A stretch of 64,000 nt of DNA from Elusimicrobiota bacterium (GTDB lineage: Bacteria > Elusimicrobiota > Elusimicrobia > UBA1565 > JACRDR01), in NCBI GenBank assembly GCA_041694815.1, contig JBGFSC010000047.1, forward strand, positions 84,545-148,544. Direction: 5' to 3'. Every line of letters starts with the position of its first letter. The stretch's first letter is position 1. Below the pieces are notes generated by a model. It ran no database searches. It was not told the origin of the DNA and saw only the letters and a list, made by a program, of their open reading frames with translations. This document shows positions 34,103-35,624 of the stretch, one piece after another. Position numbers and translations under genes: made by a program.

Positions 34103-34794
34103 TCCGCCGCGCCGGCATCATCGCCGCCGGCCACGGCGAGCGGCTGAGCGCGCGCACGAACGCCCCCAAGCCGCTCGTGCCAGTGGCGGGCCGCCCCCTC
34201 GCCTACTGGACGGTCGCGTCCTTGCGTGAGGCGGGCGTCGAGTCGATCACGATGCTGCTCAATTCCCGCGGAGAGCCGGTGCGGCGCTTCCTCGAGGAGG
34301 CGTTTCCGTCAATGGCATGGAGCTTCATCTCCCAAGACACCGCCTCTTCCTGGGAGAGCTTCCGGCTCGTTTCCCGCCGCATGGCCGCGGACTCCGACCT
34401 CTTCTTGATAAGCACCGTGGACGCGCTCCTCGCGCCCGAGGATCCCTCGCGCTTTTCGGCGGCCGTGCCGCCTGGTGCCGAGGGCGCCGTGGCCCTAACC
34501 GAATTCGTCGATGACGAGAAGCCCCTGTGGGCCTCGGTCGGCGAGGACGGATGGATCCGCGCGCTGGGCCCCGACGCCCGCGGCTCGGGCCTGGTGACCG
34601 CCGGCCTCTACGCGCTTTCCGCTGCCGCCGCCCTTACCACGGAAGGCCTCGAGTTCGCCCGCTTGCGCGATTACTGGGCCTACTTGGCGCGGCGCGGCCG
34701 TCTCGCCGGCATCCGCGTCGGCAAGGCCGTCGACGTCGACCGGCCGGAGGACATCGAGGTCGCTGAGCGGTTCCTGCTGGAGCGGCGCCCATGA
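34099..34794 (+). CDS. NTP transferase (sugar/cyclitol-phosphate nucleotidyltransferase)
   Basis: IIAAGHGERL, PKPLVPVAGRPL, STVD, DDEKPL, VDVDRPED. Confidence 0.88.
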   Translation: MIRRAGIIAAGHGERLSARTNAPKPLVPVAGRPLAYWTVASLREAGVESITMLLNSRGEPVRRFLEEAFPSMAWSFISQDTASSWESFRLVSRRMAADSDLFLISTVDALLAPEDPSRFSAAVPPGAEGAVALTEFVDDEKPLWASVGEDGWIRALGPDARGSGLVTAGLYALSAAAALTTEGLEFARLRDYWAYLARRGRLAGIRVGKAVDVDRPEDIEVAERFLLERRP

Positions 34795-35624
34795 TCCGCT
34801 GCCTCGGGGTGCTCCGCGAGCCCGAAAATTCACCCCAGAGGGTCGGCGACGACGCGCTGGTCCTGCGCAAGGTGCTCGAGCAGCTCGAGCTGTTGGGCGT
34901 CTCCACGCGCCTGGCGACGCCGGAGGAGTTTGACCGGACGGACATCACCGAATGGGACGTGCTGCTGCCCATGTGCGAGGCCTACCCACGCCTCAAACGG
35001 CTTAAGGCCGCGGCGGCGTCCTGGAAGGGACGCATGATCAATCGGGCCGAGGCGGCGCTCAATTGCTACCGCACCTCGATGGCTCCGCTGTTGGCCTCCT
35101 GCCCGGGCGTGCGCTTCCCGCCCAGCGAGCTGTACGCCGTCTCGGAGGCGGAGGGCGCCGGAGGCGACTTCCCGCATGGGGGCCGCTGGGTCAAGCGCGG
35201 CGACGTGCACAACACCTGTGAGCGCGACGTGGTCTTCGCACGCACCGGCAAGGAGTTACGCGCCGTCCTCGAGGACTTCTCGATCCGCGAGATTACCCAT
35301 TACCTTCTGCAGTCGCATGTCGAGGGCGAGCTGATCAAATTCTACGGGGTTGGCCCGGGCCGCTGGTTCACCTGGTTCTACCACGAGCCTTCGATGGTCC
35401 AAGGACACGAATTCTCCATTGACGAGCTGGCGCAAGCCGCGGCCGCCGCCGCGCGGAGGCTGGGCCTGGAGGTATTCGGTGGGGACGCCATCGTCGGAGA
35501 GGACGGCTCCGTGTCCCTCATTGACATCAATTCGTGGCCCAGCTTCGCGCGCGTGCGCTCGGAAGCCGCCGTGCAGATCGCCTGGCACGTGCATTCAAGC
35601 CTGCGGTGCAAGCTGACGTTATGA
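34791..35624 (+). CDS. ATP-grasp fold protein with ITPK1-like C-terminal motifs
   Basis: WVKRGD, LQSHVEGELIKFYGV, LGLEVFGGDAIV, LIDINSWPSF. Confidence 0.7.
   Translation: MIRCLGVLREPENSPQRVGDDALVLRKVLEQLELLGVSTRLATPEEFDRTDITEWDVLLPMCEAYPRLKRLKAAAASWKGRMINRAEAALNCYRTSMAPLLASCPGVRFPPSELYAVSEAEGAGGDFPHGGRWVKRGDVHNTCERDVVFARTGKELRAVLEDFSIREITHYLLQSHVEGELIKFYGVGPGRWFTWFYHEPSMVQGHEFSIDELAQAAAAAARRLGLEVFGGDAIVGEDGSVSLIDINSWPSFARVRSEAAVQIAWHVHSSLRCKLTL

Follow-up and report, generated by a model that had tools for sequence, protein, structure and literature searches.

What reaction does an ATP-grasp protein catalyze in an operon that also encodes a nucleotidyltransferase and a membrane cytidine diphosphate (CDP)–alcohol phosphotransferase? 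This question is raised by a gene at positions 34791-35624 (plus strand) of a 64,000-nucleotide (nt) stretch of Elusimicrobiota DNA (assembly GCA_041694815.1, contig JBGFSC010000047.1, positions 84,545 to 148,544), which, taken as a whole, we call the window. The gene encodes P0001, a protein of 277 amino acids (aa) from an unnamed ATP-grasp family. We find that this family is distinct, undescribed, and widespread in bacteria, including abundant gut Bacteroidota. On balance, and with modest confidence, we consider P0001 a cyclitol or cyclitol-phosphate kinase that would feed the cytidylyltransferase of a Kennedy-type pathway for CDP-cyclitol head groups.

The P0001 open reading frame (ORF) translates without internal stops, and its ATG overlaps the stop codon of the preceding gene. 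Three motifs had been singled out in a first-pass annotation of the locus, and all three are present in the translation exactly as given there: IKFYGVG (residues 182-188; 35334-35354), LGLEVFGGDAIV (residues 224-235; 35460-35495), and LIDINSWPSF (residues 243-252; 35517-35546), each on the plus strand. In an alignment of 38 diverse homologues with 28-61% identity to P0001, the invariant positions include K183 and Y185 of the first motif, G230, G231, and D232 of the second, and D245, N247, W249, and P250 of the third. The motifs are likewise invariant in 27 Elusimicrobiota homologues. They are the invariant core of a large ATP-grasp family, not chance strings. Further invariant residues are R9, D21, N84, R94, W133, and K135. 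The hallmark lysines and Mg ligands of ATP-grasp enzymes are represented by K135, K183, D232 (the first Mg-ligand position), D245, and N247, which align with the matching ITPK and RimK positions; the ATP/Mg site of P0001 is thus intact, as it is throughout the family. A word-indexed search, in which 8,000 candidates were scored, returned over 1,000 relatives (E <= 1e-3), and an exhaustive search gave 870 representative clusters at 50% identity. The source names of these relatives cover Elusimicrobiota, Bacteroidota/Ignavibacteria, and Thermoanaerobaculia. Among the names seen, the proteins themselves are called only “hypothetical protein,” “ATP-grasp domain-containing protein,” or “glutathione synthase/RimK-type ligase-like.”

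The neighbors of P0001 bear on what it does. Its gene is the third of six in a plus-strand operon whose members overlap by 4-7 nt. The first encodes a HAD-IA hydrolase, P0002 (33419-34102; Pfam Hydrolase 7.8e-17, HAD_2 8.4e-13). The second encodes a MobA-like nucleoside triphosphate (NTP) transferase, P0003 (34099-34794; Pfam NTP_transf_3 1.9e-09), a putative CTP:cyclitol-phosphate cytidylyltransferase; this gene shares 4 nt with the end of the HAD gene and 4 nt with the beginning of the ATP-grasp gene, and its product has weak full-length matches to NCBIfam models, including the IPCT half of IPCT/DIPPS (4.3e-09). The ATP-grasp gene is followed by genes for a class-III (omega-type) aminotransferase, P0004 (35621-36976; Pfam Aminotran_3 5.4e-96), a Gfo/Idh/MocA oxidoreductase, P0005 (36970-38004; Pfam GFO_IDH_MocA 4.7e-23), and a membrane CDP-alcohol phosphotransferase whose N-terminal ~155 aa form a cytoplasmic domain, P0006 (38001-39212; Pfam CDP-OH_P_transf 1.8e-09). 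The likely start of P0004 is the ATG at 35621, judged from the translation, which forms an ATGA overlap with the ATP-grasp stop, and that of P0005 is the ATG at 36970; the mechanical ORFs begin at 35534 and 36805, respectively. The best PDB relatives of P0004 are alanine/serine and broad-specificity amino-acid racemases (4.8e-76 and 1.7e-74), followed by gamma-aminobutyrate and putrescine transaminases. P0005 has its best NCBIfam match in inositol 2-dehydrogenase IolG (2e-20, far under the cut-off), and in the PDB it is related to, among others, glucose-fructose oxidoreductase and scyllo-inositol dehydrogenase. In P0006, the motif D-x2-D-G-x2-A-R-x8-G-x3-D-x3-D can be read intact from the translation, and the protein matches NCBIfam IPCT/DIPPS (9.6e-18) and, in the PDB, AF2299 (3.7e-16) and IPCT/DIPPS (4mnd; 1.9e-10). 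The genome carries two further CDP-alcohol transferases, one of them adjoining psd. The product of the operon would therefore be additional to the usual phospholipids.

This gene order is conserved. We compared 80 genome loci, nearly all from records titled Elusimicrobia(ota), and the order HAD, NTP transferase, ATP-grasp, aminotransferase, Gfo/Idh/MocA, CDP-alcohol transferase is complete in 55 of them, with contig ends cutting most of the others. Counted gene by gene, the aminotransferase is present in 77 loci, the NTP transferase in 72, the HAD (upstream) in 71, the Gfo/Idh/MocA gene in 69, and the CDP-alcohol transferase in 60. Furthermore, the ATP-grasp protein is recurrently fused to its pathway neighbors. 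A Pfam scan of 12 representatives of longer or odd length identified five NTP_transf_3–ATP-grasp proteins, one HAD–NTP_transf_3–ATP-grasp protein, one ATP-grasp–CDP-OH_P_transf protein, and five without an extra domain; one NTP_transf_3–ATP-grasp cluster includes members named Thermoanaerobaculia. In a separate search for longer homologues, six of eight had a precomputed NTP-transferase Pfam domain, a seventh was source-named “NTP transferase domain-containing protein,” and the eighth (P0514) had neither. Every fusion found thus joins the ATP-grasp domain to an NTP transferase (once together with a HAD) or to a CDP-alcohol transferase. Because of this conserved order and these recurrent fusions, we consider the ATP-grasp protein functionally tied to both enzymes. 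Fusions of a kinase with a nucleotidyltransferase are a common design, as in LicC/LicA and HldE, and by this analogy the fusions reported here fit a kinase-plus-nucleotidyltransferase arrangement. The first-pass annotation had proposed a cyclitol kinase that supplies the neighboring NTP transferase. The tight link to that transferase is borne out by gene order, stop/start overlap, and fusions, and a kinase is the best-supported reading, although on grounds other than those first advanced.

The same association extends far beyond Elusimicrobiota. Metagenome contigs scanned with the diverse alignment yielded another 80 loci, of which 34 have at least 8 kb on each side and are therefore fully visible. 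When these 34 were searched with the window proteins (tblastn), we detected the HAD in 34, the NTP transferase in 32, the CDP-alcohol transferase in 31, inositol-1-phosphate synthase (MIPS) in 27 (within 9 kb), and the aminotransferase and Gfo/Idh/MocA dehydrogenase in 3 each. The NTP transferase lies directly upstream of the ATP-grasp gene in 51 of the 69 metagenome loci with room to see it. The association of the ATP-grasp gene with the nucleotidyltransferase, CDP-alcohol phosphotransferase, and HAD is thus obligate, and that with MIPS is usual. We also considered whether the function of the family depends on the aminotransferase, and rejected this on the count of 3 in 34. Since none of the core-cluster enzymes forms an amine or a carboxylate, and the cluster instead offers an alcohol or an alcohol phosphate, phosphorylation would be the chemically sensible reaction for its ATP-grasp member.

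Among these distant loci are gut Bacteroidota. In L107, whose protein matches Muribaculaceae (“Candidatus Limisoma”), the Pfam-derived order is PdxA, NTP transferase, ATP-grasp, CDP-alcohol transferase, HAD, MIPS. In L117, whose protein is that of Phocaeicola massiliensis, it is PdxA, NTP transferase, ATP-grasp, CDP-alcohol transferase, LPG_synthase_TM, HAD, MFS, PfkB, MIPS. Other family loci come from Paramuribaculum intestinale, Sphingobacterium, and Runella. The Phocaeicola-type cluster (L117:10795-14619) carries an MprF-like flippase domain (LPG_synthase_TM), an MFS transporter, and a PfkB-family kinase beside MIPS; the latter could be an inositol kinase, which would bear on the substrate of the ATP-grasp protein. 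An Ignavibacteria/Bacteroidota-like locus (L085:5774-17086) has two tandem ATP-grasp paralogues that are 51% identical, with mlaE, an ABC ATPase gene, and mlaD (phospholipid transport) between them and the NTP transferase. After the paralogues come the aminotransferase, CDP-alcohol transferase, Gfo/Idh/MocA, LPG_synthase_TM, HAD, and MIPS.

We built a quick maximum-likelihood tree of 109 rows, comprising every third Elusimicrobiota locus, L059, L060, and L063, and all 80 metagenome loci. Loci without the aminotransferase form one clade of 60 rows (SH-like approximate likelihood ratio test support 91), 59 of which group with support of 99. Copies linked to the aminotransferase fall into the Elusimicrobiota clade (31 rows, support 100) and a second clade (16 rows, support 88). 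This pattern is one of clustering and not of co-evolution, since related sequences share labels. A second arrangement was seen in Elusimicrobiota. At L059:1814-7808, a MarR gene on the opposite strand is followed by an ATP-grasp copy, a universal stress protein, a dienelactone hydrolase, a CDP-alcohol transferase (5570-6775), and MIPS, and L063 has the same arrangement; we detected neither an NTP transferase nor a HAD, aminotransferase, or dehydrogenase in this stretch. The assembly that contains L063 also contains the full operon L060, and the ATP-grasp copy of the second arrangement is nested in the Elusimicrobiota clade.

The kinase had initially been invoked to explain why MIPS is absent from the window, and this explanation did not hold. 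MIPS was indeed not found in the genome, which is 97.8% complete: PF01658 and PF07994 gave no match, while as controls they were positive in 6 and 5 of 14 genomes. It is also neither in nor beside the window's cluster. However, among the 47 related loci with more than 1.2 kb past the CDP-alcohol transferase, MIPS comes directly after that transferase in 43, usually with bamA behind it. None of the 10 other Elusimicrobiota genomes with the ATP-grasp gene (of 150 others sampled) lacks MIPS, and in 6 of them it is on the same contig, 4-5 kb away. Of the four exceptional loci, L009 and L051 have bamA directly after the CDP-alcohol transferase, as in the window, and L024 and L025 differ. From these counts, the ancestral unit included MIPS, and the genome of the window has lost it, keeping six genes and all family-invariant residues. 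A general role for the kinase as a substitute for MIPS is rejected on the same counts: it normally works alongside MIPS.

How might such a kinase act? With ATP and with Mg held at D232, D245, and N247, P0001 would phosphorylate an inositol-derived alcohol. Its substrate could be free myo-inositol or an inosamine released by the HAD, or alternatively the MIPS product inositol 3-phosphate, Ins(3)P, at a second position. The adjacent and sometimes fused NTP transferase would convert the phosphorylated product into a CDP-cyclitol, and the DIPPS/AF2299-like CDP-alcohol phosphotransferase would move the phospho-cyclitol onto a membrane alcohol, such as diacylglycerol or ceramide. The product of MIPS is 1L-Ins-1-P, which is 1D-Ins-3-P, and canonical phosphatidylinositol (PI) is linked via the 1D-1 position. 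In a Kennedy-type route, the diester phosphate derives from the inositol phosphate, and a kinase and a phosphatase could for this reason re-position it. Kinase and HAD would then jointly shift the phosphate from the MIPS position (1D-3), either as Ins3P to Ins(1,3)P2 to Ins1P or as Ins3P to inositol to Ins1P, and imported inositol could also enter. There is a precedent for the Ins(1,3)P2 route: I(1)P and I(3)P are substrates of ITPK1 and free inositol is not, and in a Lokiarchaeon ITPK genes flank MIPS genes (PMC6900528).

In Elusimicrobiota, the Gfo/Idh/MocA dehydrogenase and class-III aminotransferase would turn the head group into an amino-cyclitol. The most economical linear order would be MIPS, HAD, Gfo/Idh/MocA (giving an inosose), aminotransferase (giving an inosamine), ATP-grasp kinase, NTP transferase, and CDP-alcohol transferase; it would be equally possible for the CDP-cyclitol to be the form that is oxidized and aminated. 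In the genome of the window, where MIPS is missing, the pathway would start from an external cyclitol, and the kinase step would therefore be indispensable. Conversely, that an intact operon persists in a MIPS-less, 97.8%-complete genome argues that the pathway can take a non-phosphorylated precursor, which favors the free-cyclitol variant.

The metal site of P0001 also points toward a kinase. In HMMER alignments to solved structures, the FGGD and D-I-N of P0001 are placed against FGFD and D-L-N in ITPK4 (7pup) and FGID and D-I-N in ITPK1 (2q7d, 13lz). The same positions read AGVD and E-V-N in RimK (7qyr) and TGMD and E-L-N in the macrocyclase PsnB, which acts on ribosomally synthesized and post-translationally modified peptides (RiPPs). 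In addition, K183 is aligned to the Arg of D-I-R in RimK and of D-V-R in PsnB. The D-x-N of P0001 and the ITPKs, set against the E-x-N of RimK and PsnB, is thus as originally described, and the Mg-site motifs D-x-N and F-G-x-D match those of ATP-grasp inositol-phosphate kinases rather than of RimK or PsnB. When only the central segment (residues 124-205) was compared with the PDB by phmmer, no relevant match emerged, and none of the ITPK alignments reached the K-x-Y region.

Likeness at the metal site does not extend to family membership. No Pfam or NCBIfam model passes its cut-off on P0001. The ITPK model Ins134_P3_kin (PF05770) reaches 14.3 bits (E 0.029; cut-off 23 bits) over residues 214-257 only, and TTL, at 13 bits, is also below threshold. 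P0001 is shorter (277 aa) than the matched ITPK chains (324-490 aa), its resemblance to them is confined to the last 50-75 residues, several ligases lie nearer to it in structure, and its family sits in a CDP-alcohol pathway and is fused to nucleotidyltransferases. Thus, apart from the Mg-site motifs, P0001 is not a member of the ITPK1 family by any criterion of membership. The first-pass annotation had seen in it a resemblance to ITPK1, and hence a bacterial member of a mainly eukaryotic family; what we find instead is a separate bacterial one. A true ITPK1-type enzyme, of the kind that eukaryotes and Asgard archaea have, would build soluble inositol polyphosphates on Ins(3)P, to serve signalling or storage apart from the lipid and CDP steps. 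It would account for ITPK4 and ITPK1 being the best PDB sequence matches and for the linkage to MIPS, and the Lokiarchaeal genes (PMC6900528) would be its precedent. We nevertheless regard such an enzyme as highly improbable, because its match is under the Pfam cut-off and restricted to C-terminal motifs, and because it gives no reason why the family is so strictly tied, by operon and by fusion, to the NTP transferase and CDP-alcohol transferase.

Several results weigh against a kinase. One concerns sequence profiles. A narrow profile of the family matched ITPK4 (7pup) in the PDB at 1.5e-04 over the last 70 positions and human ITPK1 at 0.13. With a broad profile, ITPK4 (3.2e-05, positions 199-274) and ITPK1 (4.8e-04, positions 208-255) are interleaved with PsnB (5.7e-05, in two stretches, positions 63-117 and 169-269), Pseudomonas aeruginosa RimK (2.3e-04, positions 70-272), and Escherichia coli RimK (1.4e-03, positions 70-274). 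PsnB and RimK therefore score like the ITPKs, which cover 50-75 C-terminal positions, while RimK is aligned over ~200 residues. As evidence for singling out ITPK from the ligases, the profile searches are equivocal. Pfam gives a similarly mixed picture. Weak matches among the 27 close Elusimicrobiota members are to ATPgrasp_YheCD (6), Ins134_P3_kin (5), and RimK (4). Among 34 diverse members, Ins134_P3_kin is the most frequent (11), followed by RimK and ATPgrasp_ST (7 each) and TTL (4). The best Ins134_P3_kin E-values in the two sets are 2.5e-04 and 2.2e-03, respectively. The ESM Atlas returned only unnamed clusters of P0001's own family, in one of which RimK is assigned to 14% of members.

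Predicted structure gives a second set of results on this side. The AlphaFold2 model of P0001 is confident (pLDDT 87.1, pTM 0.86) and has the three-domain ATP-grasp fold and an overall likeness to RimK/LysX-type ligases. In a Foldseek search against the PDB, LysX, ArgX, RimK, DcsG, Ddl, ITPK1, and PPIP5K2 all fall between 9e-14 and 4e-12, with kinases and ligases not separated. A structural comparison ranked ArgX first (3vpb; 22.3, with 2.8 and 252 as its further values), then LysX (3vpd; 22.1), RimK (7qys; 21.7), carbamoyl-phosphate synthetase (about 21), Ddl (about 20), ITPK1 (7tn6; 19.4, 3.1, and 248), and PPIP5K2 (3t9b; 19.3). The nearest solved structures are thus ligases and not ITPK. 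The first-pass annotation had named a comparison of ITPK1 with RimK/GshB structures as a check on its proposal, and the structural half of that check goes against it; of its assignment, the ATP-grasp enzyme and the ITPK-like metal site stand, and membership of the ITPK1 family does not. Fold rank alone does not settle the chemistry of P0001.

These structural matches, together with the longer alignment to RimK, are what would be expected of an ATP-grasp ligase that adds an amino acid or other carboxylate, as an amide on an amino-cyclitol or an ester on an inositol hydroxyl. Some members are annotated by JGI as “glutathione synthase/RimK-type ligase-like,” the aminotransferase is the next gene in the window, and certain clusters include the MprF-type flippase domain LPG_synthase_TM. 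Nevertheless, that aminotransferase is rare in the distant branch, the fusion partners are NTP transferases or CDP-alcohol transferases with no amino-acid-handling domain among them, and D-x-N stands where RimK, LysX, and ArgX have E-x-N, as K183 does for the Arg of RimK. RimK models are also far from reached: PF08443 has no match at E <= 0.1, TIGR00768 (rimK_fam) stands at 13.9 bits against 143.4, and MptN likewise gives 13.9 bits against a cut-off of 350. The neighborhood contains no genes for a carrier protein or peptide substrate, and the core cluster offers no evident amine or carboxylate. We therefore consider a ligase unlikely, but still to be taken seriously.

The remaining points against a kinase concern the pathway itself. 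Archaeal IPCT takes the product of MIPS directly, so a kinase is not obviously required where MIPS is present. Inositol, inosamine, and Ins(3)P are proposed substrates, and the overall data favor no single one of them. The HADs of these clusters, moreover, may not be plain phosphatases, to judge from their motifs. In all four that we aligned (P0002, 33419-34102; L107:10793-11512; L117:11799-12524; L085:14957-15667), motif I reads F-D-[FY]-G-G-T, in which the nucleophile Asp is kept and Gly replaces the general acid at Asp+2; P0002 itself has D-F-G-G-T, without the usual Asp at +2. Because this general acid is missing, a role for the HAD as a simple phosphatase is uncertain. The atypical HAD could be accommodated if P0001 had another ATP-dependent or a non-catalytic role, either as an inositol-phosphate phosphotransferase or mutase-like partner of the HAD or as an assembly or regulatory subunit of the cytidylyltransferase. 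The tandem paralogues of L085 would also be compatible with such a role, and inter-substrate phosphotransferase activity is known for ITPK1. No result points to it directly, however, and the invariant Mg and ATP ligand positions argue for real ATP chemistry, which makes this a rather improbable account. A kinase acting before the cytidylyltransferase remains the reading that we prefer.

The cluster has a counterpart in the literature. Heaver 2022 described an “alternative inositol lipid cluster” in Bacteroides (Phocaeicola) vulgatus and Prevotella, with a route from CDP-inositol to PI and then to PI-dihydroceramide (PI-DHC) that was called unconfirmed; its genes encode an NTP transferase (BVU_RS13095), a phosphatidyltransferase (BVU_RS13105), and a HAD (BVU_RS13115) and lie beside MIPS (PMC9246714). 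A 2023 review still terms the alternative route “predicted in silico” (PMC10191378). The NTP transferase, CDP-alcohol phosphatidyltransferase, and HAD are clustered in the window as well, and in Phocaeicola massiliensis and Muribaculaceae the ATP-grasp gene lies between the NTP transferase and the CDP-alcohol transferase. We infer that the locus-tag gap between BVU_RS13095 and BVU_RS13105 fits the position of the ATP-grasp gene. In the main text of Heaver 2022, “ATP-grasp” occurs 0 times and RS13100 has no match (PMC9246714). Unlike that cluster, the version in the window adds the aminotransferase and dehydrogenase and has lost MIPS. The sequence of cytidylyltransferase, CDP-alcohol phosphotransferase, and phosphatase is also the logic of IPCT/DIPPS (4mnd) and Archaeoglobus AF2299 (4o6m), the proteins to which P0006 is most similar, but the di-myo-inositol-phosphate pathway of IPCT/DIPPS has no ATP-grasp protein, aminotransferase, or dehydrogenase.

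Judged by titles and abstracts, we found no paper that ties an ATP-grasp protein to a CDP-alcohol phosphatidyltransferase and an inositol system. Searches of the literature on CDP-inositol since 2021 found no assignment of an ATP-grasp protein, those joining ATP-grasp, inositol-1-phosphate synthase, and cytidylyltransferase found nothing, and those for follow-up work on Phocaeicola vulgatus and Prevotella found nothing new. We tentatively suggest, as a possibility that we rate well below the kinase assignment itself, that the ATP-grasp protein and the atypical D-x-G-G-T HAD form a two-enzyme module that installs or re-positions the cyclitol phosphate, so that the 1D-3-phosphate from MIPS, or free inositol, becomes the isomer to be activated with CDP. 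This module would be the missing step of the Kennedy-type inositol-lipid pathway of gut Bacteroidota, and Elusimicrobiota and Ignavibacteria-like lineages would, by means of their additional dehydrogenase and aminotransferase, divert the pathway to an inosamine phospholipid head group. To our knowledge, no class of phospholipids with an amino-cyclitol (inosamine) head group has been described.

The surroundings of the operon include envelope genes. Immediately downstream (39080-50732) lie bamA (five POTRA domains and Omp85), skp/OmpH, lpxD, lpxC, fabZ, lpxA, lpxI, a second Gfo/Idh/MocA gene, lpxB, and an MsbA-like ABC exporter. Adjacency to bamA is conserved, with MIPS intervening in relatives, and hints at a role in envelope lipids. 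Divergent from the operon on the minus strand (24075-33311) are a gene for a 1,416-aa NosD/beta-helix/G8-domain protein and then pilM, pilN, pilO, a weak pilP, and a pilQ-like secretin. Farther upstream, positions 18001-24000 have an unusually high AT skew (0.26-0.36) and a GC content of 68-70%; long ORFs on the minus strand and an O-antigen-ligase-like (Wzy_C) gene (22659-24068) overlap this region.

Here, we present a new protein family for annotation, whose members are now called “hypothetical protein” or “RimK-like ligase.” Since it is fused to the cytidylyltransferase in several lineages, the ATP-grasp gene seems to belong, so far overlooked, to the core of a still-predicted inositol-lipid pathway. 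The alternative pathway is common in Prevotella and Phocaeicola, and its three-enzyme scheme, as published in the sources cited above, omits a gene that lies inside the clusters of Phocaeicola massiliensis and Muribaculaceae. As a core member, the ATP-grasp protein is a concrete candidate for the missing pathway step. Inositol lipids matter to Bacteroides, where they influence the capsule, resistance to antimicrobial peptides, and fitness in the gut (Heaver 2022, PMC9246714). Cultured carriers of the family include Phocaeicola, Paramuribaculum, Sphingobacterium, and Runella, which makes genetics and lipidomics feasible. In uncultured phyla, the version of the pathway described here may lead to amino-cyclitol lipids.

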